Of a stretch of DNA of 64,000 bases, positions 5,835-43,594 are shown one piece after another. The notes beneath the pieces were generated by a model. The model did no database searches. It saw only the letters and a program-made list of their open reading frames with translations, and was not told the origin of the DNA. Origin of the DNA: an uncultured delta proteobacterium (GTDB taxonomy: Bacteria > Desulfobacterota > Syntrophia > Syntrophales > UBA2185); NCBI GenBank assembly GCA_963695875.1, contig CAVOID010000011.1:1-64000 (forward strand), written 5' to 3'. The stretch's first letter is position 1, and the number at the start of each line of letters is the position of its first letter. Both the position numbers and the translations under genes were made by a program.

Positions 5835-7258
5835 TTAACGGCTATCCGTTACCATGATCTTCGGCTCCATCATATCCAGGATGGCATATTTAATGCCTTC
5901 CCTTCCCAGACCGGAATCTTTTATTCCCCCGTACGGCATGTGATCCACACGGAATGTGGGGACATCATTAATAATGACACCCCCAACTTCCAGGTTATTG
6001 AATGCATAGTTTATTTCATTCATATCATGGGTAAAGACTCCCGCCTGCAGGCCAAAGTTCGTATCGTTCACCATATGGACTGCGTCTTGGAAGGTTGTAT
6101 AGACTTCTATGGTGACGACAGGTCCGAAGACTTCCAGGCAATTGACCTTCATCGATTTTTTTGTGTTTGTCAGAACAGTGGGCTCAAAGAATGCGCCCTG
6201 TCTTTTCCCTCCACAGTGCAGCTTCGCGCCTCTTTCTACTGCCTCACTTACCCAATCTTCAACCCGCTTTGCATTGGGTTCATCAATCATAACGCAGAAC
6301 TGTGTTTCGGGATGAAGGGCGTCGCCACATTTTAATTTGTGTGTGTTTTCCACGAATTTCTTCAGGAATTCATCAAAGACAGACTTTCTCCACAAAGATC
6401 CGCTGGGCGTGAATGCAGACCTGTCCCGAATAGGCAAAACCACCAAAAATGCACCTTTTCACGGCAAAGTCAATGTCGGCGCTTCCGGTTACAATGACGC
6501 CGGCATTCCCGCCGAGTTCGAGCACCACCTTTTTCTTGCCCGCCTCTTTCTTCATCCGCCATCCCACATCCGGCGAACCGGTAAAGGTGAGGAGTTTGAA
6601 CCTCTCATCTGTAACAAGCTTCATTCCCGTTTGCCGATCCATCGGAATGACCGACAGCGCCCCCTTGGGCAATGAAGTCTCATCGATAATTTTTGCGAGC
6701 TCCAGTGTCGACAGTGGTGTTGCGGATGCCGGTTTCACTATTATGGGACAACCTGCCGCTATTGCCGGGGCGATCTTATGCGCGGCGAGGTTCATCGGAA
6801 AATTAAACGGGGAGATGCCTGCCACCAGACCAATGGGAAAATATTTTACGATGCCTTCCTTGTCCTTGCCGGCCGGGGGTCCAGTCGAGACCTATATATT
6901 CCCTGGGGAGCCTTTTTGCCTCTTCTGCAGCGATGAGAAAGGTCTGGCTTGAACGGTCGATTTCGCCTCCCGCATATATCAAAGGTTTCCCTGACTCCTG
7001 TGCCAGCACCTTTGACAAATGGTCTTTCCTTTGGCTTAGAGTATTCGCGATGTACCGGAGAATCTCAAATCGTTGGAAAGAACTCAGCCCTTTCATTACA
7101 TTTTCGACTGACTGGGCTTTCAAAATGGCAGTTTCCAGTTCAGTTTCTCCACCTAAATATGTTTCCGCAAAGGTCTCATTGTTATATGGGTTGGTAACTT
7201 TTAAGATTTTATTGGTTTTTTGAAAAGAACCGCCAATATAAATGTCATAACTGTCCAT
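5835..7258 (-). CDS. NAD(P)-dependent aldehyde dehydrogenase (frameshifted)
   Basis: PFNFP, KPAS, FTGS, LELGGN, SGQVC catalytic Cys, EVFGP, PYGGIKDSGLGREG across three ORFs. Confidence 0.9.
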
Positions 7259-7523
7259 GGCAACCCTCCTTTCCAATGGTAAATACTTGTTATGGTCATA
7301 CAGGAAATGACGTAAAATACATCTCCTGTCAAGGAAAAGCATATCGCATCGTTCTGTTTCTCTCTGATGGACGAAAAGGGGGAGTTGGTCGGTTCGTATG
7401 ATTTTATATCTGGGTTGCAACAACCGGCTATCCGATTGCATCTATTAAGAAGATAAAACAGGTTGATCTGAAAAGCTGATATATTCCTGAGACCTCATGC
7501 CTTTTGGGGAGGTCAGAACACTA

Positions 7524-7552
7524 TTGACATAAATACTCATTTCTCATAATAT
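7524..7552 (+). promoter_or_regulatory. sigma70-type promoter of the OFOR-Hdr operon
   Basis: TTGACA-N17-TAATAT upstream of 7606. Confidence 0.55.
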
Positions 7553-7605: not shown

Positions 7606-7908
7606 ATGAAATACTGGAGAAAACCCCTTGATCTGGAGAATATAAAAGCGAGCAGGGGGAAGGTGATTATTATTGAGGACCGATGCAAAGGTTGCGGCTT
7701 CTGCGTTGAATACTGTCCGCGGGATGTTCTTTGCATGTCACCGGCATTCAACGTAAAAGGTTATCATACACCTGCGGTGATCGATGAGTCAAAATGCGTC
7801 AATTGTCATTTCTGTGAAGCCCTGTGCCCGGAATTTGCAATATACTCCATAGAGACAGATGAGATGACAGAGGATAAACCCGGTCGGGCTCGAGAAAAGG
7901 ATAAGTGA
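7606..7908 (+). CDS. 2-oxoacid:ferredoxin oxidoreductase delta subunit (2x[4Fe-4S])
   Basis: CKGCGFCVEYCP and CVNCHFCEALCPEFAI; first gene of the OFOR cluster. Confidence 0.88.
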   Translation: MKYWRKPLDLENIKASRGKVIIIEDRCKGCGFCVEYCPRDVLCMSPAFNVKGYHTPAVIDESKCVNCHFCEALCPEFAIYSIETDEMTEDKPGRAREKDK

Positions 7909-7972
7909 GGCAGGCATAGGGGGCTTATTGTTATGTTACTGATGGAATTGTCTATTTTGCGAGGAGGGCTGC

Positions 7973-9193
7973 GTGGCTGCTAATGCCGTACTGACAGGAA
8001 CGTATTTTATGAATGGCGACTATGCCTGCTGTGAGGGTGCTCTTGCTGCTGGTTGCCGATTTTTCGCAGGATATCCGATCACCCCCGCAACAGAGATTGC
8101 AGAACGCATGTCACGCAGGCTCCCTGAACTCGGCGGTATATACATCCAGATGGAAGATGAGCTTGGATCCATGGCGGCAGTTCTGGGGGCAAGCTGGGGA
8201 GGCGTAAAGTCCATGACCAGCACATCTGGTCCGGGCTTTTCCCTGATGATGGAGAATATAGGGCTGGGCATCTGTACAGAAACACCCTGTGTCGTCTGTA
8301 ATGTACAGAGGGCCGGACCGAGCACGGGCCTCCCGACTTTGGTCGGCCAGGGAGATATGATGCAGGCACGCTGGGGGTCGCATGGCCATTATGAGATCAT
8401 CGCGCTTGCTCCTTCGAGCCCGCAGGAGATGTTTGACTTTACAATCCGTGCTTTTAACCTGAGCGAGAAGTACCGTATACCTGTAATTATCATGGCTGAT
8501 GAAGTAGTCGGCCATATGACTGAGCGGGTAATGATTCCACCGGAGAAGGAAATCATGCTTGTCGAGCGGCGCAAACCCAAGGTGCCTCCAGGCGACTACC
8601 TGCCCTATCGTCCGGATCGGGATTGGGTTGCCCCTATGGCAAACTGCGGGGATGGTTACCGGATCCACGTCACAGGCCTGACGCATGATGAGCGCGGCTA
8701 TCCGGGAATGGACGAGGAGACACAGGCACAAATGGTCAATCGCCTGATTCAGAAAATCGTAAGCAACACGGATGACATTATCAGGACGGAAAACATTTAC
8801 ATGGATGATGCTGAGGTCGTGGTTGTAGCTTACGGGATAAGTGCACGTTCGGCCAAGCAAGCCGTTCGAGAGGCCCGGGCCGGCGGCTTGCGTGCAGGTC
8901 TCATCAAACTGGAAACGGTCTGGCCGTTTCCTGAAAAGCTGATCCGGGATGTAGCGGCTCGTGTGCGCGCCCTCATTATGCCTGAGATCAATGCCGGCCA
9001 GATGGTCCTTGAATTGCAGCGGTGTGCCGGGGGTGCATGTCCCGTGCAATTGGTATCCCACTTCGGCGGTTCCATCATCCATCCCAGGACCATCCTTGAC
9101 GCCATTGAAAATGCAGTCTCAGGAGGTTATGTGAAAAATAAAAAAGCGCCGGCAAGACGGGCGTCCCGCCGTTCTGATAGGAGAAAACGATGA
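7973..9193 (+). CDS. 2-oxoacid:ferredoxin oxidoreductase alpha subunit (KorA/OorA-like)
   Basis: FAGYPITPATE, QMEDE, TSGPGFSLM, QRAGPSTGLPT. Confidence 0.92.
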   Translation: MAANAVLTGTYFMNGDYACCEGALAAGCRFFAGYPITPATEIAERMSRRLPELGGIYIQMEDELGSMAAVLGASWGGVKSMTSTSGPGFSLMMENIGLGICTETPCVVCNVQRAGPSTGLPTLVGQGDMMQARWGSHGHYEIIALAPSSPQEMFDFTIRAFNLSEKYRIPVIIMADEVVGHMTERVMIPPEKEIMLVERRKPKVPPGDYLPYRPDRDWVAPMANCGDGYRIHVTGLTHDERGYPGMDEETQAQMVNRLIQKIVSNTDDIIRTENIYMDDAEVVVVAYGISARSAKQAVREARAGGLRAGLIKLETVWPFPEKLIRDVAARVRALIMPEINAGQMVLELQRCAGGACPVQLVSHFGGSIIHPRTILDAIENAVSGGYVKNKKAPARRASRRSDRRKR

Positions 9194-10086
9194 CAAACAA
9201 AAAGGCAAAAAAGACCCTGCCGCCGCATCCCATGGAATCATTGCTTCGGAGCGAGCGGCTCCCGCATATATGGTGTGCGGGCTGCGGGATTGGAACCGTA
9301 TTGAGTTCCGTGATAGCAGCCGTTCAGAAATCCGGCTATGATCCGGATAAGACTGCCGTCGTTTCCGGCATCGGCTGTACGGCGCGAATGGCCGGGTACA
9401 TCCGTTTGGATTCCTTTCATACCACCCATGGCCGTGCCATTGCGTTCGCCACAGGCTTGAAGCTGGCCAGACCGGAAATAAAGGTGCTGGTCATCTCGGG
9501 TGACGGCGACCTGCTGGCTATCGGCGGCAACCATTTCATCCACGCGGCCCGGCGTAACATCGACATCACCGTCATCTGCGTGAACAATCTGAACTATGGA
9601 ATGACAGGCGGCCAGTTGGCCCCGAGTACGCCTTTCGGGGCGAAGACCGCCAGCAGCGTCTCCGGCTGCCCAGAAGAACCTTTTAACTTCTGTTACCTCG
9701 CCTCTGCTTGCGGTTCCGTATATGTGGCAAGATGGACGACTTTACATACCCGCAGAATCACGAACTCCATCACCGAAGCAATGCAAAAAAGAGGGTTCAC
9801 CTTCGTCGAGATACTGACCCCTTGTCCCACATCATTCGGACGCCGCAACAAAATGGGAACAGCCTTGGAGACTTTAAAGTTTTATCATGAGCGCTCCGTC
9901 ATTCTTAATGATATCGATCCGAAAGACGCACCAGTGGATTTCGGCAGTAAAATAGTGGTGGGAAAATTTGTGGACACGGAAAGGCCGACATTCATGGACA
10001 ACTATCAGTTCGTGTGTAAAAGTGAGATTGGGGACTGGCCGGATTTTGATGGAACGGCTATGCCGGAAAGTCAGGCTACACGGTAA
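9190..10086 (+). CDS. 2-oxoacid:ferredoxin oxidoreductase beta subunit (TPP-binding)
   Basis: WCAGCG, SGIGC, HGRA, GDGD...NN TPP motif, YGMTGGQ; ATGA overlap with the alpha gene. Confidence 0.92.
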   Translation: MTNKKAKKTLPPHPMESLLRSERLPHIWCAGCGIGTVLSSVIAAVQKSGYDPDKTAVVSGIGCTARMAGYIRLDSFHTTHGRAIAFATGLKLARPEIKVLVISGDGDLLAIGGNHFIHAARRNIDITVICVNNLNYGMTGGQLAPSTPFGAKTASSVSGCPEEPFNFCYLASACGSVYVARWTTLHTRRITNSITEAMQKRGFTFVEILTPCPTSFGRRNKMGTALETLKFYHERSVILNDIDPKDAPVDFGSKIVVGKFVDTERPTFMDNYQFVCKSEIGDWPDFDGTAMPESQATR

Positions 10087-10676
10087 TGGCTATGTTCTTG
10101 AAGCACGAAAAGCATGTTCTCATAACCGGTTTCGGCGGACAGGGGATCATAATGGCCGGTGACATCCTGGGAAAAGCCGCTACCCTTTATGATCGTAAGT
10201 TTGCCACTATGACGCAGGCATACGGACCCGAGGCCCGCGGCGGCGCCTGCTCAGCCCAGGTCATCATCGGCACGGAAGAAATACTTTTTCCTTACGTGAA
10301 GGAGCCGCAGGTTTTGATCTGTCTGAGCCAGGAAGGGTATTCCAAAAATATCGGTAACCTCCGCAACGGCGGTATTCTGATCGTGGACACAGACCTTGTA
10401 CACACAAATAACCCTGATCCCGGCGTTACTGCATACCAAGTACCGGCAACCCGTTTTGCCGAAGAGCTTGGCAGCAAAATGATGGCCAACATCGTGATGC
10501 TTGGCTTTCTATCAGCGGCGTATAATCTTGTGAGCATCAAGGCGATGCGTGAAGCCGTTCAGGCATCCGTCCCGGAGGCAACAAGGAAAATTAACGCACA
10601 GGCTTTCAATCGGGGCCTTGAGTATGGCGAAGCTATTCTCAAAAGCCGGGCAAAGAAGGATAAGCTCAAGGATTGA
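10086..10676 (+). CDS. 2-oxoacid:ferredoxin oxidoreductase gamma subunit
   Basis: GFGGQGII, YGPEARGG, ANIVMLG. Confidence 0.92.
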   Translation: MAMFLKHEKHVLITGFGGQGIIMAGDILGKAATLYDRKFATMTQAYGPEARGGACSAQVIIGTEEILFPYVKEPQVLICLSQEGYSKNIGNLRNGGILIVDTDLVHTNNPDPGVTAYQVPATRFAEELGSKMMANIVMLGFLSAAYNLVSIKAMREAVQASVPEATRKINAQAFNRGLEYGEAILKSRAKKDKLKD

Positions 10677-13600
10677 TTATGCGTAAGCGCACTTCATCCA
10701 ATAACCAGAAAAAGGCTATACTGCTGATTGGCTCCGGTTACGGCGCCTTAAAGGTAGCGCAGGACCTCTCACAATCCGGCCTGCCGCTGGTCTGGGTTAC
10801 CAAGGCCGTTCACTTTCTGGAACTGCCTGGTGGTGTGGAACACTTTACCGAATGGCCTGAGGATTTGGACTTCCAGTTCCGCCCCCTCTACCTTCAGGTT
10901 ACACGCCATCCGCTGGTGACAGCCATGACGCATGCAAGGGTTGAAGCCATCAAACGCGGCCCCGATGGTTATAGGGCTGTCATCGTTCAGGATCCCATGT
11001 ATGTGGACTACGATCTTTGCACAGGTTGTGGGCGCTGTATGGAGGTCTGTCCACTTAATGATAAGGTCCATCCTCCTCTGAGAAGAACTCCGGCCTACTG
11101 CCCTTCACGGGCTCTGGATTTAGAAAAGCGCAAGCTCTCTCCCTGCCGGACGAGTTGCCCTCTGGGCGTGAATGTTCAGGCTTATATGGCGCTGACCGCA
11201 GCTTCCAGATTCGAAGAGGCCCTCAATATCATCCGGGAAGACAATCCCCTGCCGGGCATCTGCGGGCGCGTCTGTCACCACCCGTGCGAGGACGCCTGCC
11301 GCCGCGGCTCTCTGGATGAGGCAGTGGCCATCTGCAGTGTCAAGCGTTTTCTTGCCGATCAGGAAATGGCTAAGGGCCGGCCTAAGCTGCCTGGTGCTAA
11401 AAAATCTGTAAGGCCGGAAAAAGTGGCGATAGTAGGAGGCGGCCCGGCCGGTCTTGCTGCTGCCTATTTCCTCAATAGGGAGGGTTTCAGTGTAACGGTA
11501 TTCGAGGCTCATCAAGAGGCCGGAGGAATACTGCGCATCGGAATCAATGCCTTCAGGCTTCCCCGTTCCGTATTGGATGCGGAGATACAGGCAATTGCTG
11601 ATGCCGGTGTGAAGATTCGAACAAATATAAAGGTCCACTCCGTCAAAGACTTTTTTGGCAAGGGATTCCGGGCTGTGCTCGTGTGCACTGGGGCTCACCG
11701 GGACCTTCGGCTTAATATACCCGGTGAAGATACAAACGGTGTCTTTGGCGCTCTTGAGATGTTGAAAAACCTTAATACAGGCAGAGATCCGAACGTTCAT
11801 GGGCATGTTGTCGTCATTGGCGGCGGGAACTCTGCAATCGACGCCGCCCGTTCCGCCGTGCGGCTGGGAGCCAAGACAGTTACCATCTGCTACCGACGGA
11901 AGCGCAAAGATATGCCGGCTCACGACTCCGAGATCAAGGCAGCCACGCAAGAAGGGGTAAAGATTGAATATCTCGTGGCGCCAGTCCGTATTGCCGAGCG
12001 GAAAGGAAAAGTGTTCGGCCTCAAAATGGTCCGCATGAAACTCGGCGCCCTCGATGAAAGCGGACGGAGAAAACCGGAACCGGTTGCGGGTTCGGATTTT
12101 TTCCGACATGCCGATACTGTTATTGTTGCCACTGGGCAGCAGTCCCACCTTGAGGAAGAAGGACTGGGCGGTCAATTTTTTCTGGGGCGGAGCGGACGGG
12201 TTAATGTTGACGAAAGGCTTTCTACATCGCAGCAGGGTGTTTTTGCCGCCGGTGATGCGGTTACAGGACCTGATACCGTCGTAGGTTCCATGGCTCAGGG
12301 ACGGCAGGCTGCGGCCAGGGTTGTCGAATATCTTACAGGGGTGTCTCCCCCGTGGGGCCTTCGTCCGGATGAGTCAAGAGGTGCGGGGGAACACGTGGAG
12401 ATTTCCGAGGACACGCCGCGCCGATGGCGGCCGGAGGTGTCCCTGAGAAAGCCAAAGGTAAGAAGACGGGACTTCGACGAGGTGGGACTTGGCTTCACCA
12501 TGGAACAGGCGATTGCAGAAGCATCGCGCTGTACTCAGTGCAGCTCCTGCTGTGAATGCCGCCTCTGCGAAAGTGTATGCAGTGAAATCGGAGCTATTGA
12601 TCATTTCAGGAACCCGCAGATCATGACCATATCAAGTCCCACAGTAATCGTTGCGAGCGATGAAGAGGTAGCCCACCTGGATTTGGCAGATCAAGATGGT
12701 GTCTATCATGTGGGAGACTTCCGGAATTCTACCGACATCGTGAATGTATTGATAGCCGGCAGCGCATCGGCCGGCCAGGCCATGGCGGAATGTGCGCCGC
12801 TAAGGATCACCGGTCCTCCCGGCCAGCCGATGTCCGTTGAACTCGATCAGGACTTACGTTTCGGTGTGTTCATCTGTACCTGCAATGAAACCCTGGCGCC
12901 GGCGCGCACCCTCGAGCGCATAAGGGAAATGGGACGACAGATGCCCGGAGTGATACACAGTGAACTGATCTTTTCAGCCTGCCATCCCCGTGGGGCCGAC
13001 CGGATTGCCGCGGTTGTACGAAGGCACAAGCTAAACAGGGTCGTGCTGGCATCCTGCGTGTGCTGTCCCCTGGAGTTCCAGTGTATCTCGTGTAATGATC
13101 AGCGAAACCGCGCCCGTATCCATCTGTTTGACAGGCTTGGCCTCGACAGGTGCCGGTTCGAAACGATTAACATCAAGGATCATCTTGGCACCGCCGATCC
13201 GTCTGAGGATATGCTCGTAGCTAGAATGCGCGATTTCCTGAAGGAGGCCTTCATCCGGGCCCGGTTCATGGGGCCCCTCCGCCAGAGTGTTACAAAGATC
13301 GGAAACCGGATCCTGATTCTGGGGGGGTCTGAAGTGGGCTTAAGCTGTGCCCTTAATCTGAACATGCAGGGGTTCAAAGTGCGCCTGGTTCATCGATGCA
13401 GTCTGAAAGATGACCGTGATCTGCCGAAAGAAATTCGGGGAAGACCTATAAGCCGCATTGCAGGCGAGTTCATCACACACGTTGACGAAGCCGTCATTGA
13501 GGGGATCAAAGGTCACTTGGGTGATTTTACCGTGACGTTCCGCAGGGATGGCGTCCGCAAGCATTTTCATGCGGATATTGTGTGCCTTGCCGACCTGAAT

Positions 13601-14050
13601 GTCCTAGCTCTGGCCATTCCCGAGGGGATGTTCGGCCTCAAGAAGTTTTACCGTTACAACTTCAAATTCTTCCATAGCCCTCAGATCGGCGTGTACAGAG
13701 TGATGCCCAGAACGCTCAAGAGAGTGACGGCCTTCCAGGCAGGGGCTGCCCTGGCGTCACATGTGGCAACGACGGCGGCCGAAGCCTTTCTGAAAGATCA
13801 TGAGCTCAGCCCCAGGGTCAATAAGGAGCGATGCCGCGGTTGCGGACGCTGTGTCGAGATCTGTCCTTTCGATGCAGTGACGCTGGTTGCCAATGAGCGC
13901 GGCTTTTATACGGCGCAGGTGCTGCGCTACAACTGTGTCGGATGCGGCGGCTGCGTGGGACGCTGCCCCGTGACGGCCATGGATATGCCGTACTTTACCA
14001 ATTGCCTCCTCGAAGAGATCGTGGCAGGAACACTGGCCGGAGAGAAATGA
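10673..14050 (+). CDS. HdrL-like multidomain flavo-iron-sulfur protein (HdrA-like scaffold with inserted GltD/NfnB-like NAD(P)H module)
   Basis: HdrA-like segments (YVDYDLCTGCGRCMEVCP; GVFICTC; VVLASC) flank a GltD-like module (PCRTSCP, CGRVCHHPCE, GGGPAG, GGGNSA, YRR, AGD); C-terminal 2x[4Fe-4S]. Confidence 0.75.
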   Translation: MIMRKRTSSNNQKKAILLIGSGYGALKVAQDLSQSGLPLVWVTKAVHFLELPGGVEHFTEWPEDLDFQFRPLYLQVTRHPLVTAMTHARVEAIKRGPDGYRAVIVQDPMYVDYDLCTGCGRCMEVCPLNDKVHPPLRRTPAYCPSRALDLEKRKLSPCRTSCPLGVNVQAYMALTAASRFEEALNIIREDNPLPGICGRVCHHPCEDACRRGSLDEAVAICSVKRFLADQEMAKGRPKLPGAKKSVRPEKVAIVGGGPAGLAAAYFLNREGFSVTVFEAHQEAGGILRIGINAFRLPRSVLDAEIQAIADAGVKIRTNIKVHSVKDFFGKGFRAVLVCTGAHRDLRLNIPGEDTNGVFGALEMLKNLNTGRDPNVHGHVVVIGGGNSAIDAARSAVRLGAKTVTICYRRKRKDMPAHDSEIKAATQEGVKIEYLVAPVRIAERKGKVFGLKMVRMKLGALDESGRRKPEPVAGSDFFRHADTVIVATGQQSHLEEEGLGGQFFLGRSGRVNVDERLSTSQQGVFAAGDAVTGPDTVVGSMAQGRQAAARVVEYLTGVSPPWGLRPDESRGAGEHVEISEDTPRRWRPEVSLRKPKVRRRDFDEVGLGFTMEQAIAEASRCTQCSSCCECRLCESVCSEIGAIDHFRNPQIMTISSPTVIVASDEEVAHLDLADQDGVYHVGDFRNSTDIVNVLIAGSASAGQAMAECAPLRITGPPGQPMSVELDQDLRFGVFICTCNETLAPARTLERIREMGRQMPGVIHSELIFSACHPRGADRIAAVVRRHKLNRVVLASCVCCPLEFQCISCNDQRNRARIHLFDRLGLDRCRFETINIKDHLGTADPSEDMLVARMRDFLKEAFIRARFMGPLRQSVTKIGNRILILGGSEVGLSCALNLNMQGFKVRLVHRCSLKDDRDLPKEIRGRPISRIAGEFITHVDEAVIEGIKGHLGDFTVTFRRDGVRKHFHADIVCLADLNVLALAIPEGMFGLKKFYRYNFKFFHSPQIGVYRVMPRTLKRVTAFQAGAALASHVATTAAEAFLKDHELSPRVNKERCRGCGRCVEICPFDAVTLVANERGFYTAQVLRYNCVGCGGCVGRCPVTAMDMPYFTNCLLEEIVAGTLAGEK

Positions 14051-14051
14051 C

Positions 14052-14483
14052 GTGGAACAGGTCCGCATTCTGGGGATATGCTGTAACTGGAGCCCTTTCG
14101 CCTGCTATAATGCGGCCGGGATGACAGGAATGAAAATGCCGCCGAACTTCCAGCTGGTGCGGGTAATGTGTATCGGCCGCATCAATCAGGCCCTGATCCT
14201 CAGGTCCTTTGAGTTCGGGGCGGATGGTGTAATCCTCCTGGAGTGCAAGGATGAGGACTGCCGTTATGGTCCGGGCCCGGAGGTGGGGCATGAGAACGTA
14301 CACCGCGTCCGCAGGATCCTTCACCTCCTAGGCATTCGTCAGGAGCGGTTAGTGGAGTGCACTTTCGGCGCCCATGATAAAGATGAGCTGGTCCGGACCC
14401 TGTGGAAGTTCACAGAGGACATAAAGGCGTTGGGCCCCTTTATGGAAGAAAACAACAGGAAAATGGAGGAGTTGAAGAGGTGA
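14052..14483 (+). CDS. mvhD: MvhD-like [2Fe-2S] subunit
   Basis: CCNW, VRVMCIGRI, GADGVILLECKDEDCRY. Confidence 0.82.
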   Translation: MEQVRILGICCNWSPFACYNAAGMTGMKMPPNFQLVRVMCIGRINQALILRSFEFGADGVILLECKDEDCRYGPGPEVGHENVHRVRRILHLLGIRQERLVECTFGAHDKDELVRTLWKFTEDIKALGPFMEENNRKMEELKR

Positions 14484-15643
14484 ACGACCCGAGAATCGAC
14501 AAGATGATTGTGGACATGTCGCTTTATCAGTGCCTGGAATGCGGCAAGTGCACAGCATCGTGTCCGCGAAGGCTTTCGGGCAAGGAATATTCCCCCCGGC
14601 TTCTGGCGCATAAGGTGATTGTTGAGCGGGAAGACGAAGCCTACATCGAAAATGCAGTCTGGGAATGTCTGACCTGCGGCATGTGTCGTGAACGCTGTCC
14701 TTCAGGTGTCGATTTCAACAATTTCATTCTGGAGATGCGTACTCTCCTGGCTGAAACAAAAAGCCTGAAGGGTTACCGGGCACATGACGGTGCCATCCAT
14801 TCCTGGATGCGGATGATGACCTCTCCGGGTCTCGAGCAGAACCGTCTCGACTGGCTGGATCCGGGCATTCAGGTCGCTTCGTCCGGTGACATAGCATTCT
14901 TCACGGGATGTGCACCCTATTTCAATGTCTTCTTTGCCGGCATCGATGTTGATACACTCTCCATTGCAAGAGACAGCATAAGGCTGTTGAACTTCCTCGA
15001 CATCAAGCCGGTCCTTTTGCCGAACGAGCGGTGTTGTGGTCACGACCTGCTGTGGTCGGGGGATACAGAAAACTTTAAAGCCCTCTGCAGGTTGAACTAT
15101 GCCACCTTCAAGGAGGCAGGGGTCAAGGAGATCATCGTTACGTGTCCGGAGTGCTTTCACGTCCTTAGTGAACAAATGCCGCGGATCATACCCGGATTTG
15201 ATGTGAAAGTCACACTGCTTCTGGATCTTCTGCAGAGGGAAATGCGTATTGGCGGAATAGCCTTTCGACCGCTGAAAATGAAGGCAACGTTCCAGGATCC
15301 ATGCAGGCTGGGGCGTATGCTGAACCGCTATTCCGGTCCCAGGGAATTGCTCGGCCTTATTCCGGAAGTGGAGCTTCTGGAGATGGAAAAATCAGGCAGG
15401 AGTGCAACTTGTTGCGGAAACTGCGGCTTCATCAATTGCGATGCCTATTCCAAGCAGATTCAGGTGCAGAGGCTTCAGGAGGCCCGGGCGACCGGCGCCG
15501 ACCTTCTCGTTACCGCGTGTCCCAAATGCATGATTCACCTTACCTGCACCATCAGGGATCCGCTGAGGCATGGCAAAAAAATAAAAATGGAGATAAGGGA
15601 TCTGGTATCTGTCCTTGCCGACCAGATCGAGTATAGCGGGTAG
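14480..15643 (+). CDS. HdrD-like (Fe-S)-binding CCG-domain oxidoreductase
   Basis: CLECGKCTASCP, CLTCGMCRERCP, two CCG domains (CCGH..CPEC; DPCRLGR..CCGN..ACPKC); GTG start with GGAGG RBS overlapping the mvhD stop. Confidence 0.85.
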   Translation: MNDPRIDKMIVDMSLYQCLECGKCTASCPRRLSGKEYSPRLLAHKVIVEREDEAYIENAVWECLTCGMCRERCPSGVDFNNFILEMRTLLAETKSLKGYRAHDGAIHSWMRMMTSPGLEQNRLDWLDPGIQVASSGDIAFFTGCAPYFNVFFAGIDVDTLSIARDSIRLLNFLDIKPVLLPNERCCGHDLLWSGDTENFKALCRLNYATFKEAGVKEIIVTCPECFHVLSEQMPRIIPGFDVKVTLLLDLLQREMRIGGIAFRPLKMKATFQDPCRLGRMLNRYSGPRELLGLIPEVELLEMEKSGRSATCCGNCGFINCDAYSKQIQVQRLQEARATGADLLVTACPKCMIHLTCTIRDPLRHGKKIKMEIRDLVSVLADQIEYSG

Positions 15644-15727
15644 GATAGGAAAAACAATTAATTCAGCAGGGCAGGCGTTTTGTCTGTTCTGTCGGTGAGG
15701 ATAAGTTATTTCTTAAGAAGGAGAGGA

Positions 15728-18145
15728 ATGAAGGATATAGAAGCAAGCGAGAATGTCAGAATCGGTGTTTATGTATGCCAGTGCGGATCGAACATCGCCG
15801 GTGTGGTAGATTGCGCCGTCGTAGCGAAGTATGCGGAAAAATTGCCGGGCGTGGTGATTTGCCGCAATCAGGGCTATACATGCTCCGAGCCGGGTCAGAA
15901 CCAGATCAAGAGCGATATCAGGGAATACGGTCTTAACCGGGTAGTGGTTGCATCGTGCTCACCGCGGCTCCATGAGGCGACATTCCGGCAGTGTGTCAGC
16001 AAGGCGGGACTCAATCCCTACTTGTTGGAGATGGCAAACATCCGCGAACAATGCTCGTGGGTTCACAGCCATGACGCTAGGGAAGCTACAGCCAAGGCCA
16101 GGGACCTGGTACGCTCGGCCGTGGCGCGCGTGCGCCTGCTCAACGCACAAACGGAAATGGATGTCCAGGTTACTCCGGCAACTTTGGTTGTAGGAGGCGG
16201 TGTGGCTGGTATCCAGGCCGCCCTCGATCTTGCGGATGCAGGGTACAAGGTAATACTCGTCGAGAAACAGCCCAGCATCGGTGGTATCATGGCCAGATTG
16301 GACAAGACGTTTCCCACCATGGACTGTTCCATCTGAATACTCGGGCCGAAGATGACGGATGCCGGTCGGCATCCCAACATTACGCTGCTGACGATGAGTG
16401 AAGTCAAGGAGATCACGGGCTTCGTGGGGAACTTCCACGTACGCATCCTGAAAAGGGCGAGGTACGTGAATGAGAAGGAGTGCACGGCCTGCGGGGATTG
16501 CGTCCCTGTGTGTCCGGTGATCGTTCCCGATGAGTTCAACATGGGCCTGAGCTCCCGGAGGGCCATCTATTCGCCGTTTCCCCAGGCAGTCCCTTCAGCC
16601 TTTGCCGTGGATATTACCAAGTGCCTCGGCCATAATCCCATAATTTGCGGGAAATGCATTGAGGCGTGCAAGAAGCGTTGCATTGACTTCGATATGAATG
16701 ATGAGGAACTGGAATTCGACGTAGGTACGATCATCGTAGCCACGGGGATGGAAACCTATGATCCACGCATCCTCGATGAGTACGGATACGCACGCTTTGA
16801 GAACGTGCTTACGAGTATGGAGCTGGAGCGCATGATCAATGCCGGCGGACCCACCGGCGGCAAGGTCATCCGCCTGACGGATGGTAAGCCCCCTAAATCC
16901 GTTGCCTTCATCCAGTGTGTGGGCTCCCGTTCACTGAGGCGGGGACGGCCTTACTGCTCTAACATATGCTGCATGAATACGGTGAAGAGCACGATCATGC
17001 TGAAAGAGCATTATCCGGACATGGAGATCAAGGTATTTTATATCGATATCCGGGCTTTCGGCAAGGGGTTCGAAGACCTGTTCCGGAGGAGTAAAGGTAT
17101 GGGTGTCCGCTACATTCGGGGCCTTCCGGGTGACATAAAGCAGGATACCTCAAGCGGGAACCTGATACTGACAGTGGAAAACACGGCAACGAATAAGCTG
17201 GATACCCATCGTGCTGAAATGGTCGTCCTTGCCGTTGGACTTGAACCGACTTCGGACATGAAGGTGATACAGGAGATGCTGGCCCTGCAGACGACATCGG
17301 ATGGCTTTTATCTTGAGGCCCATCCTAAGCTGCAGCCCGTAGACTCGGCTACCCGTGGGATCTTCTTTGCCGGTTGTGCCGAAGGGCCCAAGGACATAAA
17401 AGATTCGGTTACCCAGGCGTCTGCTGCCGTTGCCAGGGCCATGCGTCTCATGAATCCCGGTACGCTCACAGTGGAGGCGATCACTGCGGAGGTGGATCCG
17501 GAACTCTGCACCTCTTGCGGCTTGTGTGCAAAGGTATGCCCGTATCATGCCATGAGCGTGGATACAAAGGCAAAGACGGCAGCAGAGGTTGTTGAAGCGG
17601 CATGCGCGGGCTGCGGAACTTGCGCCGCGGAATGCCCTGTGCTCGCCATTTCAATGAATCACTTCACCGACGCGCAGATCGAGGCGCAGATCGATGCTAT
17701 TCTGGAGAAAGACGCAGCCAAACGAATCCTTGTCTTCGCATGCAACTGGTGTTCCTATGCGGGCGCAGACTTCGCCGGCGTCTCACGGCTCCACTACCCG
17801 CCGAATACCCGCCTGATACGGACCATGTGCTCGGGCAGGGTGCATGAAAAGTTTATCTGGCGTGCCTTCGAAAGGGGGGCTCCGGCAGTCCTTGTTTCCG
17901 GGTGCCATATCGGCGATTGCCATTATATCAATGCCAATCAATGGACGGAACGGCGCGTGAAAAGGATATGGAAGAAGATGGAAAAGCTGGGACTGCGCAC
18001 TCAAAGGCTGGGGCTGGAGTGGATCAGCGCCGCGGAAGGCCTTCGCTTCCAGCAGGTCATGGAGCGCATGGAACAGATCAGGAAAAGCGTCACTCCCGGG
18101 GAAATCGCCGATAGCGTGCGCATCCTCAAGAAGAAAACGACTTAA
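15728..18145 (+). CDS. hdrA: selenocysteine-containing HdrA fused to a C-terminal MvhD (UGA read-through at 16334-16336)
   Basis: ORFs 15680-16336 and 16352-18145 share a frame and are joined by [17 protein letters not shown], the conserved Cys position; GGGVAG, QCVGSR, CSNICC, HPKL; C-terminal [19 protein letters not shown]. Confidence 0.9.
16357..16374 (+). promoter_or_regulatory. bacterial SECIS hairpin of hdrA
   Basis: GGATGCC-GGTC-GGCATCC: 7-bp stem with a G-led loop 27 nt after the UGA. Confidence 0.75.
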
Positions 18146-18174: not shown

Positions 18175-19209
18175 CTATATTGGGGCGCCGGCAAGAATGA
18201 AAGCCCTGCGGGTAAGATCTTCCGGAATGAGTTCTCTTTTCATCTGGCTGGTAAGCTCCGACACCCCAAGCCATTGCCCTGAAGCAGCAATGACAGGTTC
18301 AAGACTACCATTGTCATTTACAACGGCAACTCCGCCGGAAGCCCAGAACATGAGCCTGGAGCCGGCGTTTCCCCTCACTTTCTCGCCGCGCCCGAATACG
18401 ACAATCCGTTCCCTGACTTGGACATCTCTGTAAAAGGTGTAATCCGCACGAACAGTCACTGCGCCACTGGCGGAAATCATGAAACCACTCCATCCCATCA
18501 CCTCATCTAAGAAAGCGAGGAAGGCGACGGGATGAATGATATTATCTCTTTGGAAAAGATAAAAGGATTCACTGTCCCAGCCATCAAATCCCGCGGTGGA
18601 AACAATTATTTTCCCTGGCTGGTTTGTGTTTAAAAGGTAAAAACGCCTTCTAAGGCCGGGATGAGAGCGTTCAATACCGCAAACAAAGCAACTTTTATAA
18701 TAAGGTAGCGGAAAAAGCTTATTCTCTAAATCTGAAAAATTCCCCAGCATATATGTAATGAAATGATCTTTCTTGGAAAGTTCGTTATTTCTGAATCTAA
18801 TTGAAGCCGAGACATACGGGGCGGCCTCCTGATTAACCATGATTGTTCCCCCCCCGCCACCCTCTCCGGGAGAAACTTTTACATGTACCTTATCTCCTGT
18901 CAGTACACGTGATCCTCCCATACGAAAGTCTGCCGATAAGGGGTAAAGAAGCTCACTGGTTGCCGGATAGTTATCAAGCATCATGACAAGTTCCATGATC
19001 GCTCCCATACCTATGCCCCCATGGGGAATCCCAATCCATCCTTCAGTCCGCGAATCCATCAAAAGGTTAGATTCGATGCATCTGTCGCTATGATGAATGT
19101 CGGAGTCGCCAAACAGGAAATTCCTTACAAAATTCCGTGAATCCTTGTCATATCGGGAACCGAAAACTCCAGGTGAATGTTGAGACACTGTCTTTCTCAA
19201 TACCTCCAT
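18175..19209 (-). CDS. putative tandem hotdog-fold (PaaI-like thioesterase) protein
   Basis: GWIGIPHGG in the first half; SCFVCG..PGL and LDEVMGW..AVTV in the second half. Confidence 0.55.
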   Translation of the reverse strand: MEVLRKTVSQHSPGVFGSRYDKDSRNFVRNFLFGDSDIHHSDRCIESNLLMDSRTEGWIGIPHGGIGMGAIMELVMMLDNYPATSELLYPLSADFRMGGSRVLTGDKVHVKVSPGEGGGGGTIMVNQEAAPYVSASIRFRNNELSKKDHFITYMLGNFSDLENKLFPLPYYKSCFVCGIERSHPGLRRRFYLLNTNQPGKIIVSTAGFDGWDSESFYLFQRDNIIHPVAFLAFLDEVMGWSGFMISASGAVTVRADYTFYRDVQVRERIVVFGRGEKVRGNAGSRLMFWASGGVAVVNDNGSLEPVIAASGQWLGVSELTSQMKRELIPEDLTRRAFILAGAPI

Positions 19210-19448
19210 ATTTCTTTATTAGAACCATGATTGTTAATCATATATATGGGTTATTTGAAATCAACAGAAAAAAGTATGGCGAAGATTGATGACCCATTTA
19301 TTCTTAAAGTTTTACAAAAAAATTTCCGATATACAGAATATAACTCTGTTTATAAATATAATTGAAAACCGCTAAAAAAATAAGGAATTAGAGGAAGATA
19401 ATTATCAGACCCACAATATCAGAAAGTGCAGTCGAGACCTATCCAATA

Positions 19449-20285
19449 ATGAAAATAGCAGCATCTATAAAGAAGAGATTCCATACGGGACTCGCAAGGT
19501 CGTTTCTTTGCATGATAATCGGTATGTTCACTTTACCATCATTTGTGTATGCCGCAGAGGCTATGCAGACATACGACAGGCAGTCTATCCGATACCCTTC
19601 CATGAATACAGGGCAGATCTGGGCTAAGATAGGGGGGAACTCGTCCCCCAACCCCGATATGGGGGCAGGAAAGATCTCGACTAAGGTTGCAGGAAATTCA
19701 TCCCCTGACCTCAATGCGGAAACGGGAAAGGCCTCGACTAAGACCGAGGGGGATTCATCTTCAAACCCCGGTGCGGATACGAAGCAGGTCTCGACTAAAA
19801 ATGAAGGAAACTCATCTCCCAACCTCAATCGGGAATCAAAAATCCTGAACAATGAAACCAGCCAGGGCACTGAAATAAAAAAAAGGCTGAAGAAAAAAAG
19901 CTCACGAAAGGTACGGGCGCAAAATAACAATGGAAGCCAAACAGTAACTGTAAATAACAATCCGTCACGACTGAAAACAGATGATAAAGAAAATCAAAAG
20001 ACGTCCGTTAACAAACCGGTCCAGCCGAAAAAGATACTCCTGGCGGATGGAAAGAAAGCGGAAATGCCCAAGGCTGATCAACCTGTGAAAAATTGGCATC
20101 ATAAGCAGGAACTTTATGATATAGACTGCGGCGAAAAACTGGCAAGGGTTGTCGTCACATATTATTTTAATAAAAGAGAAATGCTTTTAAAATCAAGTCA
20201 AACCCCTGATGCGGAATGGTACCATATCTACCCCGGGTCATTTGAAGAACAACTCTATACCGAAATCTGTAATCCCCATTGGTAA
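19449..20285 (+). CDS. exported protein with 19-aa repeats and a C-terminal surface-adhesin-E-like domain
   Basis: signal-like N-terminus ending VYA; C-terminal IDC...WYHIYPGS..E.LY..IC pattern. Confidence 0.5.
   Translation: MKIAASIKKRFHTGLARSFLCMIIGMFTLPSFVYAAEAMQTYDRQSIRYPSMNTGQIWAKIGGNSSPNPDMGAGKISTKVAGNSSPDLNAETGKASTKTEGDSSSNPGADTKQVSTKNEGNSSPNLNRESKILNNETSQGTEIKKRLKKKSSRKVRAQNNNGSQTVTVNNNPSRLKTDDKENQKTSVNKPVQPKKILLADGKKAEMPKADQPVKNWHHKQELYDIDCGEKLARVVVTYYFNKREMLLKSSQTPDAEWYHIYPGSFEEQLYTEICNPHW
19605..19832 (+). repeat. 4 x 57-bp intragenic tandem repeat
   Basis: TCGACTAA at 19677, 19734 and 19791 (57-bp period); unit xxGKxSTKxxGNSSPNxxx. Confidence 0.85.
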
Positions 20286-20346
20286 CAGACAACATTACCC
20301 CACCTGATATGTCCTGACCGGGAAGCAAACTGCCATTGACTTCAAT

Positions 20347-20610
20347 CTATTCAAATCTTTCTAATAATTCTCTTAAAGCAGGTCGAATATAGACGTCATC
20401 GAGATCAAAATTTTTCAGGGCCTTAACCAGTGCTCGAATTTTATCTTTTGTGGTTGTCTTGGAATTGACAATGATGAAGCATTCTCCTTTCAATCGACAG
20501 AGACCACCCGTGCTCGTTAACTCTTCTTCGACGATTTTGTCATACCGTATTTGTATTCCGAGCTTGTCAGCCAATCCCTCAAGTTGACTTAAGGCGGTGT
20601 GATCATCCAT
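20347..20610 (-). CDS. conserved hypothetical protein
   Basis: 87-aa ORF, LGIQIRY..GGLCRLKG..LDDVYIRPALRELLE. Confidence 0.6.
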   Translation of the reverse strand: MDDHTALSQLEGLADKLGIQIRYDKIVEEELTSTGGLCRLKGECFIIVNSKTTTKDKIRALVKALKNFDLDDVYIRPALRELLERFE

Positions 20611-20757
20611 AAGAGATTCTCATAATTCTATTGGGTACTGTTGATCTGCACCGCATACTATCATAATTTAACCCGGAGTTCTGTCATTTTTGTTTATCAG
20701 CGCGGAGTGGTTTTCGTTTTTGAGCAGGTAATCATTCAACTGAATGTCGCAAAGCCC

Positions 20758-22073
20758 TGTTGACTCATAAATAAATGTTACCGAAGGATAGAAGTAAGTA
20801 AGGATCGTTGACTCATAAAACATGTTACTCAGCGGGAGAAGATTTTTTTAAGTTTTGTTTCCATAGCATTTCTTAGCAGAAATGGGTTACGGTTTTCAAG
20901 CTGTTTGGAGAGCGAGAGTTTTACTGATTCAGATATATGGGGAGATTCCATGACTCTCTGACAAGGGGTTTTCGGCGAGTCATGTTGTTTGGTGGTTTTA
21001 GAACCGATGCGTTCTTTGGCAATGAGTTTCACGGACGGGCAGAAGAAGTTGTGGAAGAGTCTCCATTCATTGCGGTAGAGGTTATTAAGAAGGGCGATGA
21101 CCCTGGGATTATCTAATCTCTGGTAACCGAGCCATTGGCGTACGTGCGTCCAGTTTTTCTGTTCTACATGTGCGTTATCATCTTTGTGGTACGGTCTGCT
21201 GCGGGTAAATTTTACGGGGTGTTTTCGTCGGGTAAAATGTCTCACGAGGTGATAATTTAAGAACTCTGATCCGTTATCGCAATCGAAGCCAAGGAGTGGA
21301 AAGGGGAGCATTTTTTCTATGTTTTTGATTTGTTTGAGGACGCCTGTTTCTCCTTTACCCCACACAGCTCTTTGTTCCGTCCATCCCGTGGCAATGTCCA
21401 CGCAGTCTATGGTATATGCGTACATTCCCAGCAATGACTCTCCACAATGGGCTACGGTATCGGCTTCAAGGAATCCCGGTTTTGATTCATCCCATTGGTT
21501 TGTTTGTATAGGTATTTGTTTCCTTAAGAGAGTTCCCGGTTTTGTTGTAGATCTGCCGCGTTTTTTATAGTGGATGCGGGTGGGTTTAAGAAGTCTATCT
21601 ATGGTAGCTGGTGAGATTTTTACCAGAGCTTCTGTGATCGGTGGAAGGAGTTCACCGTAGAGTTGAATATATCCTGGCAACCAGATAGGTAAAATGGCTT
21701 TTAGACGCTTTGAACAGGGGAGATTTGCTGCCAGCCATATCTGTTTTAAGGGCTTCAGAATCTCCTCATTTTGATAAACGGGAGGCTTCCCTCGTTTCTT
21801 CGGTCTTGGCTTCGTGAAGCGTTTAAATCTCCTGAGAAGGCGTATGGCATGTTTTCTATGGTATCCGCACGTTGTGCAGAACTCGTTCAGGATAATTGTT
21901 TTTTCATAGCGGGAAGCATTTTTATAGCGTAAATGGATTGCCTTAGTGTACTCTTTTTTCGATCGTGGACTCATAGATTATCCTCCTTTTTGGAGTCGGT
22001 GTTCGGTAACACCTATTTATGAGTCAACGATCCTTTTTTAAACACCTCTTGGGTAACATTTAATTTGAGGCAA
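20758..22073 (-). mobile_element. insertion sequence with two repeated ~22-25 bp motifs at each end; exact tips uncertain
   Basis: GTTGACTCATAAA-N-TGTTAC at 20759 and 20807; inverted copies at 22005-22028 and 22051-22073 flank the transposase. Confidence 0.8.
20829..21974 (-). CDS. DDE transposase (rve integrase core)
   Basis: N-terminal HTH (EFC..GYHRKHAIRLL), EADTVAH, DCDNGSEF, SRPYHKDDNAHVEQKN; AGGAGG RBS; intact frame. Confidence 0.9.
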   Translation of the reverse strand: MSPRSKKEYTKAIHLRYKNASRYEKTIILNEFCTTCGYHRKHAIRLLRRFKRFTKPRPKKRGKPPVYQNEEILKPLKQIWLAANLPCSKRLKAILPIWLPGYIQLYGELLPPITEALVKISPATIDRLLKPTRIHYKKRGRSTTKPGTLLRKQIPIQTNQWDESKPGFLEADTVAHCGESLLGMYAYTIDCVDIATGWTEQRAVWGKGETGVLKQIKNIEKMLPFPLLGFDCDNGSEFLNYHLVRHFTRRKHPVKFTRSRPYHKDDNAHVEQKNWTHVRQWLGYQRLDNPRVIALLNNLYRNEWRLFHNFFCPSVKLIAKERIGSKTTKQHDSPKTPCQRVMESPHISESVKLSLSKQLENRNPFLLRNAMETKLKKIFSR

Positions 22074-43141: not shown

Positions 43142-43492
43142 ATGCATGAACTGTCTGTAACAGAAAGTATCCTTAATATTGTCCTGAAACACGCCCAGAC
43201 AAACAAGGCGGAAAAAGTTCTCACCATAGGTCTTAGGATAGGAGAACTCAGTGAACTTGTCGGTGAATGTATTCAGCACTACTTTGATTATCTCAGCAAG
43301 GGCACCATCGCAGAGGGGGCAACGCTTGATATTGAGAGATCGCCGATTATATTTGAATGCACTGAATGTAAGAACACCTTTCAGGTTTCACTTAGTGAGA
43401 CAAAAGATTTTACATGTCCTGAGTGCCATGGGGTGAAGGTTAGACTGACATCCGGCAGGGAGTTTTATATCAAGGATATAACAATCTCATAG
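43142..43492 (+). CDS. hypA: hydrogenase maturation nickel metallochaperone HypA
   Basis: MHELS, CTEC...CPEC, GREFYI. Confidence 0.93.
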   Translation: MHELSVTESILNIVLKHAQTNKAEKVLTIGLRIGELSELVGECIQHYFDYLSKGTIAEGATLDIERSPIIFECTECKNTFQVSLSETKDFTCPECHGVKVRLTSGREFYIKDITIS

Positions 43493-43518
43493 AATAGAGT
43501 AAATTTGATTCACAACAA

Positions 43519-43579: not shown

Positions 43580-43594
43580 AATAGAGGTGATATA

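Follow-up and report, generated by a model that had tools for sequence, protein, structure and literature searches.

What is a 2-oxoacid:ferredoxin oxidoreductase (OFOR) doing in the same gene string as a set of heterodisulfide reductase (Hdr)-type proteins, and could the two halves work as one electron-bifurcating machine? The question is raised by eight co-oriented genes that occupy positions 7606-18145 (+) of a 64,000-nt stretch of DNA from an uncultured delta proteobacterium of the Syntrophales (the window, to which all coordinates refer except those that carry a genome or locus label). The four subunits of an OFOR are followed there by an HdrL-like flavo-iron-sulfur protein, an MvhD-like adaptor, an HdrD-like protein and an HdrA. 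The same order recurs in 30/30 orthologous loci, and the arrangement is thus far beyond chance. The eight products probably form a single physical complex. As to the fuller proposal, that this would be one soluble cytoplasmic multi-flavin iron-sulfur complex coupling three redox couples by HdrA-type bifurcation or confurcation, we consider the arguments for and against to be about equal.

Layout of the eight genes

The features of the cluster are as follows.

7524-7552 (+): sigma-70-like promoter match, TTGACA-17-TAATAT, 10/12, 54 nt 5' of the delta start
7606-7908 (+): OFOR delta, 100 aa; two CxxCxxCxxxCP motifs, 2x[4Fe-4S]
7973-9193 (+): OFOR alpha, 406 aa; POR_N 233 bits, PFOR_II 73 bits
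9190-10086 (+): OFOR beta, binding thiamine pyrophosphate (TPP), 298 aa; TPP_enzyme_C; 4-nt overlap with the alpha stop
10086-10676 (+): OFOR gamma, 196 aa; POR domain PF01558, 120.9 bits; 1-nt overlap with the beta stop
10673-14050 (+): HdrL-like flavo-iron-sulfur protein, 1125 aa; start TTG 10673 (overlapping the gamma stop) or ATG 10679
14052-14483 (+): MvhD-like [2Fe-2S] adaptor, 143 aa; FlpD 115 bits; without selenocysteine (Sec) and without a TGA
14480-15643 (+): HdrD-like protein (HdrC+HdrB fusion), 387 aa; Fer4 dicluster and two CCG domains
15728-18145 (+): HdrA2-type HdrA with a fused C-terminal MvhD domain, 805 aa from ATG 15728; alternative start TTG 15680
16334-16336 (+): in-frame TGA of HdrA, predicted Sec, U219 (counted from 15680); motif C-S-I-U
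16357-16374 (+): hairpin resembling a selenocysteine insertion sequence (SECIS), 6-7 bp stem GGAUGCC/GGCAUCC, GGUC loop, starting 20 nt past the UGA

An earlier note on this DNA, made from the letters alone, had assigned these identities to the eight genes, and domain searches, model searches and the in-frame TGA bore them out. It had also pointed to overlapping or abutting stop and start codons from alpha through the HdrD-like gene, the boundary between the OFOR and Hdr halves included, and the spacings agree with this: -4 nt for alpha/beta, -1 for beta/gamma, -4 for gamma/HdrL, +1 for HdrL/MvhD and -4 for MvhD/HdrD. The gamma/HdrL value becomes +2 if ATG 10679 is the start of the HdrL-like gene. 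For the HdrD-like gene the longest version of the open reading frame (ORF) runs from 14402, and GTG 14480 overlaps the MvhD stop as GTGA. The outer junctions are looser (delta/alpha +64; HdrD/HdrA +36 or +84, according to which of the two HdrA starts is taken). The promoter match upstream of delta is a good fit to the consensus but alone is not significant, 11 promoter-like sites being found compared to 7.9 +/- 2.9 in shuffled sequence, and no strong or convincing terminator on the + strand was found inside the cluster. Because the junctions from alpha to HdrD are tight, a promoter-like site precedes delta and no strong internal terminator intervenes, the best reading of the layout, together with the synteny described below, is that the eight genes make up one operon. 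Domains of hydrogenase, formate dehydrogenase (Fdh), Flx or BamB were found neither in the cluster, as the earlier note had stated, nor within about 10 kb of it.

The block is conserved across several phyla

At least 120 full-length homologues of the HdrL-like protein exist (57-92% identity; the best 120 span 783-1137 aa). For a survey of gene order, one genome per species was scanned with an alignment of 14 HdrL-like sequences, which gave 80 loci, and these were then searched with the eight window proteins. Where the HdrL-like gene was 53-80% identical, which applied to 30 loci, OFOR genes lay directly upstream on the same strand in every case, with all four present in 29; the other locus, L017, is cut by a contig end and retains gamma only. 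MvhD and then HdrD followed in all 25 loci that reach past HdrL, and HdrA came next in 21 of the 22 that reach past HdrD, although it is broken by frameshifts in two of them (L026 and L030). The adjacency of OFOR and Hdr genes is thus not peculiar to one genome; had it been so, the interpretation of the earlier note would have fallen on its own terms. The carriers, including more distant loci described below, are labelled Syntrophales/Syntrophaceae, Desulfarculus, Adiutricales, Abyssobacteria, Spirochaetota, Anaerolineae and Bacteroidales.

In the locus in which HdrA did not follow (L008:13565-23369), the order OFOR-HdrL-MvhD-HdrD continues into glycogen genes (ADP-glucose pyrophosphorylase-like and GH57). 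The block can therefore occur with seven genes and no HdrA beside them, so that HdrA is not obligatory in it. From this variant it follows that the conserved core is OFOR+HdrL+MvhD+HdrD, and that HdrL, MvhD or HdrD, rather than HdrA, may be the docking site of the OFOR.

The other 50 loci (L031-L080) are of the canonical HdrL type, 34-42% identical to the window protein and with longer HdrA-like stretches; their matches extend over about 3.0-4.6 kb compared to about 3.4 kb here, and in 40 of the 50 the HdrL-type part of the match goes no further than the first 53-63% of the window protein. Among the 50 are five with OFOR genes directly upstream as well (L045, L058, L062, L067 and L073; 35-38% identity; labelled Bacteroidales, Anaerolineae and one other). 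The remaining 45 have a longer canonical HdrL and no adjoining OFOR, 44 of them without further qualification and one, L070, with an OFOR set 7 kb off on the opposite strand.

Clustering of all flanking ORFs revealed no conserved flank gene beyond the eight; amtB and glnB recur in 3 loci only. Of 121 genomes in the order to which the window belongs, 12 encode the C-terminal half that distinguishes the HdrL-like protein; they fall in 3/24 families (carriers per family 7/8, 2/2 and 2/7), and the 21 other families had none. The distribution of the block is patchy, and it behaves like one self-contained piece that moves as a unit.

HdrA has the residues of a bifurcating flavin and a predicted selenocysteine

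The HdrA protein exceeds the cut-off of the HdrA2 model (NF040770, 1221.9 bits against 1100) and matches the solved HdrA 5odc_A from end to end (805 bits, 24-675 on 2-650). Each domain was checked against that structure, and the N-terminal, thioredoxin reductase (TrxR)-like, inserted ferredoxin and C-terminal ferredoxin domains are all present; the fused MvhD domain gave 139 bits against 5odc_D. The motif C216-S-I-U219 aligns with Cys194..Cys197 of 5odc_A, and K436 with Lys409, which we take to be the flavin-N5 lysine of 5odc. A lysine near the flavin N5 together with a cysteine pair is given as the hallmark of the Hdr-type bifurcating flavin in the available text of a preprint on the class II benzoyl-CoA reductase, BCRII (bioRxiv 10.64898/2026.04.10.717634). 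Electron bifurcation by this HdrA, the only one found in the 82.6%-complete genome, can be predicted from these hallmark residues.

The in-frame TGA occurs at the same codon in 23/23 sequences (22 loci and the window). The 16-nt core of the hairpin downstream of it is identical in 22/23, and neighbouring third codon positions vary. The Anaerolineae locus (L062:10004-10063) has a compensatory change, GAUGUC/GACAUC against GAUGCC/GGCAUC, one side of which is non-synonymous (Ala to Val). The fold energy of the hairpin was no better than that of shuffled sequences (z -0.93), so that the case for it is made by its conservation and the one compensatory change and not by fold energy; an Rfam search matched no SECIS family, its only two hits being at chance level (E 0.38 and 0.54). 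SelA and SelB are both present in the genome. Since TGA and hairpin are conserved, the stem has a compensatory pair and SelA and SelB are available, the reading of the TGA as selenocysteine is well supported.

The HdrL-like protein contains a putative NADPH entry module

HdrL was defined in Desulfobacterium autotrophicum HRM2 as an HdrA/GltD fusion followed by mvhD (Strittmatter et al. 2009, PMC2702500, in its available text), and the product of the fifth gene resembles it in being a large HdrA/glutamate synthase fusion with an NAD(P)H site; a GltD-like NAD(P)H/FAD module lies within an HdrA-like protein, and mvhD is the next gene, 1 nt after the stop. Four segments can be recognised. Residues 15-128 match HdrA 167-280, from the start of the TrxR-like domain to the first cysteine motif of the inserted ferredoxin domain, and have no cysteine at the position of the HdrA C-S-I-U. 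Residues 156-632 are a GltD/StnC-type FAD/NADPH module carrying K224. Residues 722-908 match HdrA 20-196, that is the N-terminal domain and the start of the Rossmann fold, with a degenerate glycine motif, and residues 1012-1121 match the C-terminal ferredoxin domain with its 2x[4Fe-4S]. The full-length HdrA part of a canonical HdrL is absent, counterparts being found only for HdrA 10-182 and 544-643. By alignment the protein is a mosaic, shortened relative of canonical HdrL from which most of the second TrxR-like domain is missing.

The GltD-like module scored highest against NfnA of the Bfu-type NfnABC (9bov_A, 391 bits), then StnC (8oh5_C, 328 bits) and NfnB (4ylf_B and 5jca_L, about 280 bits), residues 156-632 aligning with StnC 102-576 and NfnA 102-577 (327-391 bits). 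Its five closest solved relatives all use NADPH and share with it a YRR stretch, which is presumably tied to the NADPH 2'-phosphate. K224, invariant in 14/14 HdrL-like sequences, aligns with K170 of StnC and with the lysine of 9bov_A and 9n5u_A, whereas NfnB (4ylf_B, 5jca_L) has a glutamate. That glutamate is a ligand of the proximal [4Fe-4S] cluster of NfnB, and in StnC, where Lys170 replaces it, bifurcation is lost (PMC10482914); in NfnABC of Csac the NfnA flavin is the NADPH entry point (NfnABC paper). We read the module of the HdrL-like protein as a non-bifurcating NADPH entry, which would leave any bifurcation to the HdrA-type flavin. We considered bifurcation of the NfnB type at the flavin of the GltD-like module and decided against it, the ligand position being lysine and not glutamate. 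The bifurcating core supplied by the module is of the HydBC type in Stn and NfnABC; here the module is embedded in an HdrA-like frame. A second GltD-like module, 44% identical to residues 155-625 of the HdrL-like protein, lies in another part of the genome, inside a 1030-aa open frame (G000:C8:32763-34193 (-)).

Intact CCG motifs in the HdrD-like protein

The cysteines of the MvhD-like protein (C11, C18, C40, C65 and C70) are conserved in 26/26 sequences. The HdrD-like protein has two CxxCxxCxxxC motifs and two CCG motifs, C144..C185C186..C222xxC225 and C275..C311C312..C347xxC350, both complete. Its eight ferredoxin and ten CCG cysteines are kept in 24/24 sequences, with the exception of C225 (22/24). 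The CCG motif is defined as CX31-39CCX35-36CXXC; the first spacer here, 40 residues, is one over that range, and we count the element as a CCG motif. All the named NCBIfam equivalogs that matched (HdrC, TfrB, GlpC, LdhH, TmcB and HmcF) remained below their cut-offs, the best being TfrB (138 bits against 385). As both CCG motifs are intact, unlike those of BamD of BCRII, HdrB-like disulfide chemistry at the HdrD-like subunit is possible.

A partner for such chemistry may be at hand. Outside the window the genome encodes a DsrC-family protein with a C-terminal arm of the form C-x10-C (C-x10-C-V end; G000:C4:26265-26567 (-)), which is a possible candidate for a protein disulfide. Genes for electron-transferring flavoprotein (ETF) occur at four or more loci of the genome, and with DsrC-type and ETF genes both present, both kinds of high-potential partner are available.

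The OFOR belongs with the 2-oxoglutarate-type enzymes

The gene order delta-alpha-beta-gamma, with standard domains, is that of KorDABC/OorDABC. Against solved structures alpha scored 414 bits with 1yd7_A, 278 with 8ys5_A (a 2-oxoglutarate synthase), 209 with 6n2n_A and 59 with the four-subunit pyruvate:ferredoxin oxidoreductase 9bt4_B, and beta scored 222 bits with 8ys5_C and 50 with 9bt4_C. On account of these alpha and beta scores and of the gene order, the OFOR is placed by sequence in the Kor/Oor (2-oxoglutarate-type) clan, closer to Kor/Oor than to Por/Vor-type enzymes, and it is the only close Kor-type OFOR found in the 82.6%-complete genome. The one model whose cut-off was passed by any OFOR subunit, PRK08659 (alpha, 581 bits against 411), is generic. 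The 2-oxoglutarate-specific models were the best named hits of the subunits, but all below cut-off: OorA 379 against 579, OorB-type 255 against 364, OorC 93.6 against 216 and OorD 55.4 against 93, the last together with OGOR_delta (62.6 against 125) being the best hits of delta. Gamma reached 199.6 bits with PRK08537 (cut-off 235). 2-Oxoglutarate would be the likeliest 2-oxoacid substrate. As to other routes to 2-oxoglutarate, among five carrier genomes a prokaryotic NADP-dependent isocitrate dehydrogenase (IDH) over cut-off was found in none, but each has two or three paralogues of the family of IDH and isopropylmalate dehydrogenase; Si-citrate synthase was present in two of the five.

The N terminus of delta (M1, K2, W4, R5, P7, L8 and D9; window 7606-7632) is invariant in 12/12 sequences, and might be a docking element of the delta subunits in Hdr-linked operons.

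Comparison with known Hdr-type systems

The closest characterised machine is BCRII of Geobacter metallireducens, Bam[(BC)2DEFGHI]2 (bioRxiv 10.64898/2026.04.10.717634). As the available text of the preprint describes it, this has an HdrA-type bifurcating core, an MvhD-like adaptor, an HdrD-like high-potential exit, a pyridine-nucleotide entry module, a low-potential catalytic module attached via ferredoxin-like clusters and a selenocysteine in the redox relay, and in all of these the cluster studied here is alike. There are differences as well. BamE is a fused double HdrA, whereas HdrL and HdrA are separate genes here; selenocysteine is in the MvhD-like BamF and not in HdrA; entry is through the NuoEF-type BamGH(I) and not a GltD/StnC-type module; and the catalytic module is the tungsten-containing BamBC, not a TPP-dependent OFOR. 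Most BamD homologues have a disrupted distal cluster, and BamD docks and reduces ETF and does not reduce a heterodisulfide, whereas both CCG motifs are intact here. With no fused double HdrA, an MvhD without selenocysteine and intact CCG motifs, the present genes are not a BamDEF set.

The methanogen complexes MvhAGD-HdrABC and Fdh/Fmd-Hdr (5odc, 7bkb, 8rvu, 9sw6) share with the cluster an HdrA that includes the CxxC(U) motif and the lysine, an MvhD domain and HdrC- and HdrB-like parts. They differ in that the donor here would be an NADPH module and not a hydrogenase or Fdh, that HdrB and HdrC are fused and that the low-potential partner would be an OFOR; furthermore, the heterodisulfide of coenzymes M and B (CoM-S-S-CoB) is not expected in these bacteria. 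The nearest functional analogy is a CO2-reducing enzyme wired to HdrA via a polyferredoxin.

The earlier note had presented the cluster as a candidate for a new type of complex, and this did not hold. A cluster 'HdrAL/POR' (Sfum_0012-0018) was named in Syntrophobacter fumaroxidans in a single sentence, with no function, in the available text of Sedano-Nunez et al. (2018, PMC5947623). It is a seven-gene Hdr-like set (HdrA and HdrL) with a pyruvate:ferredoxin oxidoreductase, and so is of the same kind as judged by its described composition only; the locus tags were not found in four supplements of that paper. Direct delivery of electrons from Hdr to a four-subunit 2-oxoglutarate:ferredoxin oxidoreductase (OGOR) for CO2 fixation has likewise been proposed from genomes (Rubin-Blum et al. 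2019, PMC6315080). In the available text of that work, korABCD/tfrAB of tubeworm symbionts and Thioflavicoccus mobilis are interspersed with flxABCD-hdrABC, a Kor-type OFOR and an NAD(P)H-linked Hdr as here; those clusters differ in having an FlxABCD NADH module and HdrABC, no HdrL, a gammaproteobacterial host and a position within the genes of the reductive tricarboxylic acid cycle. The gene cluster is thus already in print and uncharacterised, and its value lies in the biochemistry rather than in its discovery.

A proposed mechanism

From what is directly visible, namely the gene identities, the cofactor motifs, the conserved synteny and the signals for selenocysteine decoding, we infer a physical complex, an electron path, substrates and a direction. 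NADPH would bind to the HdrL-like subunit, at its GltD-like module, and be oxidised to NADP+ by the non-bifurcating flavin there. The electrons would pass one at a time, via [4Fe-4S] clusters and the [2Fe-2S] adaptor MvhD, to the flavin of HdrA, from which one would go uphill in potential to the HdrD site and the other downhill through ferredoxin-like domains to OFOR delta and the TPP site. At the HdrD-like subunit the motifs for non-cubane clusters point to a high-potential thiol/disulfide couple, for which a DsrC-type protein is one candidate disulfide, or, less likely, to a protein partner such as ETF. The low-potential couple at the OFOR would be 2-oxoacid + CoA / acyl-CoA + CO2, with delta taking the place of the soluble ferredoxin or polyferredoxin of the methanogen Hdr complexes. 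Overall, the reaction would read

2 NADPH + acyl-CoA + CO2 + R-S-S-R' <-> 2 NADP+ + 2-oxoacid + CoA + 2 thiols

Forward, this would be a reductive carboxylation of acyl-CoA, and in reverse a confurcation of electrons from 2-oxoacid and thiols onto NADP+. The potentials of the two exit couples are about -500 mV and about -150 mV; because their average is close to the NADPH couple, the reaction should be reversible. The anatomy would fit the reductive (synthase) direction at least as well as 2-oxoacid oxidation. We lean slightly towards synthesis, and the oxidative direction follows as a little less probable. The most specific form of the proposal, a ferredoxin-free, NADPH-driven 2-oxoacid synthase, most likely of 2-oxoglutarate, whose delta would feed TPP directly while the other electron goes to a disulfide, is doubtful.

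Should the eight products work as one machine, this would be the first flavin-based bifurcating complex with an OFOR as a built-in part, and electrons of about -500 mV for C-C bond chemistry would be made or used from NADPH alone. Running in reverse it would be the first 2-oxoacid-driven confurcation, in which thiol-level electrons are raised to NADPH. Either way it would bear on CO2 fixation into 2-oxoacids or on electron disposal in energy-limited anaerobes (syntrophs, Desulfarculales, Anaerolineae and others). The reading makes concrete predictions: an NADPH entry of the StnC type, an intact HdrB-like double site, selenocysteine in the redox pair of HdrA, and a seven-gene variant.

Modelling of subunit interfaces, one of the checks that the earlier note had proposed, gave weak support to a contact between delta and HdrA, the latter entered as two frames of genetic code 11. 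The score was 0.57, compared to 0.00 for the best of 3 controls, with at least 71% agreement of contacts between runs and a predicted local distance difference test (pLDDT) value of at least 71 for the partner. In the calibration the mark was reached by 116/157 solved complexes and 2/215 mismatched pairs, but scores at or below 0.60 comprised only 18 of the 157 solved complexes and both of the passing mismatches.

Several points weigh against the mechanism as proposed. By that calibration, a pass as weak as the one between delta and HdrA will in most cases be wrong, unless the contact was a likely guess beforehand, and, as complexes of polyferredoxin with HdrA have already been solved, the pass may reflect likeness to those structures. 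The AlphaFold2 model of the HdrL-like protein, built from a 14-row alignment, had a mean pLDDT of 62, a predicted template modelling score (pTM) of 0.42 and iron-sulfur regions below 50; it was too poor for the placement of cofactors and was used for secondary-structure hints only. The L008 block does without an adjacent HdrA, and no OFOR-Hdr gene fusion was present among the best 120 HdrL-like homologues. As to substrates, every OFOR subunit falls under its 2-oxoglutarate-specific NCBIfam cut-off, the nearest HdrD-like protein to have been characterised, BamD, acts on ETF instead of a disulfide according to the available text on BCRII, and a role of the DsrC-like protein in sulfite reduction is unlikely, since dsrA was not found in the 82.6%-complete genome. 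The 'HdrAL/POR' proteins of S. fumaroxidans were undetected in any proteome, as far as the available text of the 2018 study reports (PMC5947623), and no biochemical study of an OFOR-Hdr complex was found in the literature searched; mentions of the cluster earlier than those cited here may exist.

Alternative explanations

The alternative that survives best is that the OFOR and the HdrL/MvhD/HdrD/HdrA set are co-regulated but separate, an ordinary ferredoxin-dependent OFOR and a Flx-Hdr-like NADPH enzyme linked by soluble ferredoxin. The OFOR does have the standard four subunits with a normal two-cluster delta, and both the missing fusions and the weak pass of the delta-HdrA prediction speak for this reading. 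On the other hand, the stop/start overlap falls exactly at the gamma/HdrL boundary, OFOR genes are upstream in 30/30 loci from several phyla whose flanks all differ, which is unusually strict for a diffusible link, and no ferredoxin gene travels with the block. We therefore regard two separate enzymes as unlikely, though worth serious attention.

A second possibility keeps the wiring of the proposed complex but has the HdrD-like subunit hand its high-potential electron to a protein carrier, ETF and from there the quinone pool, in the manner of BamD. In the part of the BCRII preprint available, the closest characterised module docks ETF and has its heterodisulfide site blocked; in addition, ETF genes lie at four or more loci of this genome, and the HdrD-like protein falls below the cut-off of every named NCBIfam equivalog. 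Retention of the ten CCG cysteines in 24/24 sequences (C225 in 22/24) argues against a blocked site, and no etf gene lies in or beside the block in any locus. Delivery to ETF is distinctly less probable than the separate enzymes, and for the complex itself we retain the disulfide as the better candidate acceptor.

NAD(P)-linked OFORs occur in denitrifying degraders of aromatic compounds, and a non-bifurcating, NADP+-reducing 2-oxoacid dehydrogenase, in which HdrL would carry OFOR electrons to NADP+ and the Hdr parts be accessory or regulatory, would suit the non-bifurcating type of the GltD-like module, the seven-gene variant without HdrA (L008) and the weak matches (42-70 bits) to NCBIfam models of the NADH-dependent phenylglyoxylate dehydrogenase, an enzyme of the OFOR family; but we regard it as improbable, since it leaves the conserved MvhD, the HdrD with intact CCG motifs and the full HdrA with its Sec motif unexplained, a downhill transfer from about -500 to -320 mV needing none of the three.

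Flanking genes and quality of the assembly

A role for the cluster was also sought in its flanks, which hold glnA, amtB and glnB on the upstream side and also an aldehyde dehydrogenase, a thioesterase and a Liv transporter, and was rejected because the flanks are not conserved. The suggestion of the earlier note that the neighbours would fit catabolism of amino acids or 2-oxoacids lacks support for the same reason, no flank gene being conserved beyond close relatives; of the two nearby hotdog thioesterases it had listed, one was found, and the divergent aldehyde dehydrogenase is present but split into three frames in the assembly. Overall, the gene identities, the tight coupling and the lack of the usual donors stood, and the novelty, the flank-based catabolism and the number of thioesterases did not. 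The amtB-glnB-glnA neighbours hint at supply of 2-oxoglutarate for nitrogen assimilation, in a context that is not conserved.

Three genes are split in this assembly: the aldehyde dehydrogenase (5835-7441 (-), three ORFs), amtB (1155-2386 (+), two ORFs) and hypF (47751-49917 (-), three ORFs). Their break points are near short homopolymers, and they are probably assembly indel errors, or else pseudogenes. The eight cluster genes align with their orthologues over 83-100% of their length, without frame breaks. The family match of the Liv permease ORF (25753-26547 (+)) is confined to positions 1-69 of the family. Three ORFs just downstream of the cluster (18175-21974; 344, 278 and 381 aa) had no Pfam match, the last of them giving a faint IS481-transposase-like score of 31.7 bits against a cut-off of 224.

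Genes for [NiFe]-hydrogenase maturation, hypA, hypB and hypD with the fragmented hypF, lie 25-33 kb downstream at 43142-44164 (+) and 47751-51209 (-), outside the cluster, and are not conserved beside the block in other loci. Further on, three MORN-repeat ORFs (195, 139 and 600 aa) occupy 52815-55915 (-), where strand skew is extreme (positions 54001-56000: GC skew -0.37, AT skew -0.50).

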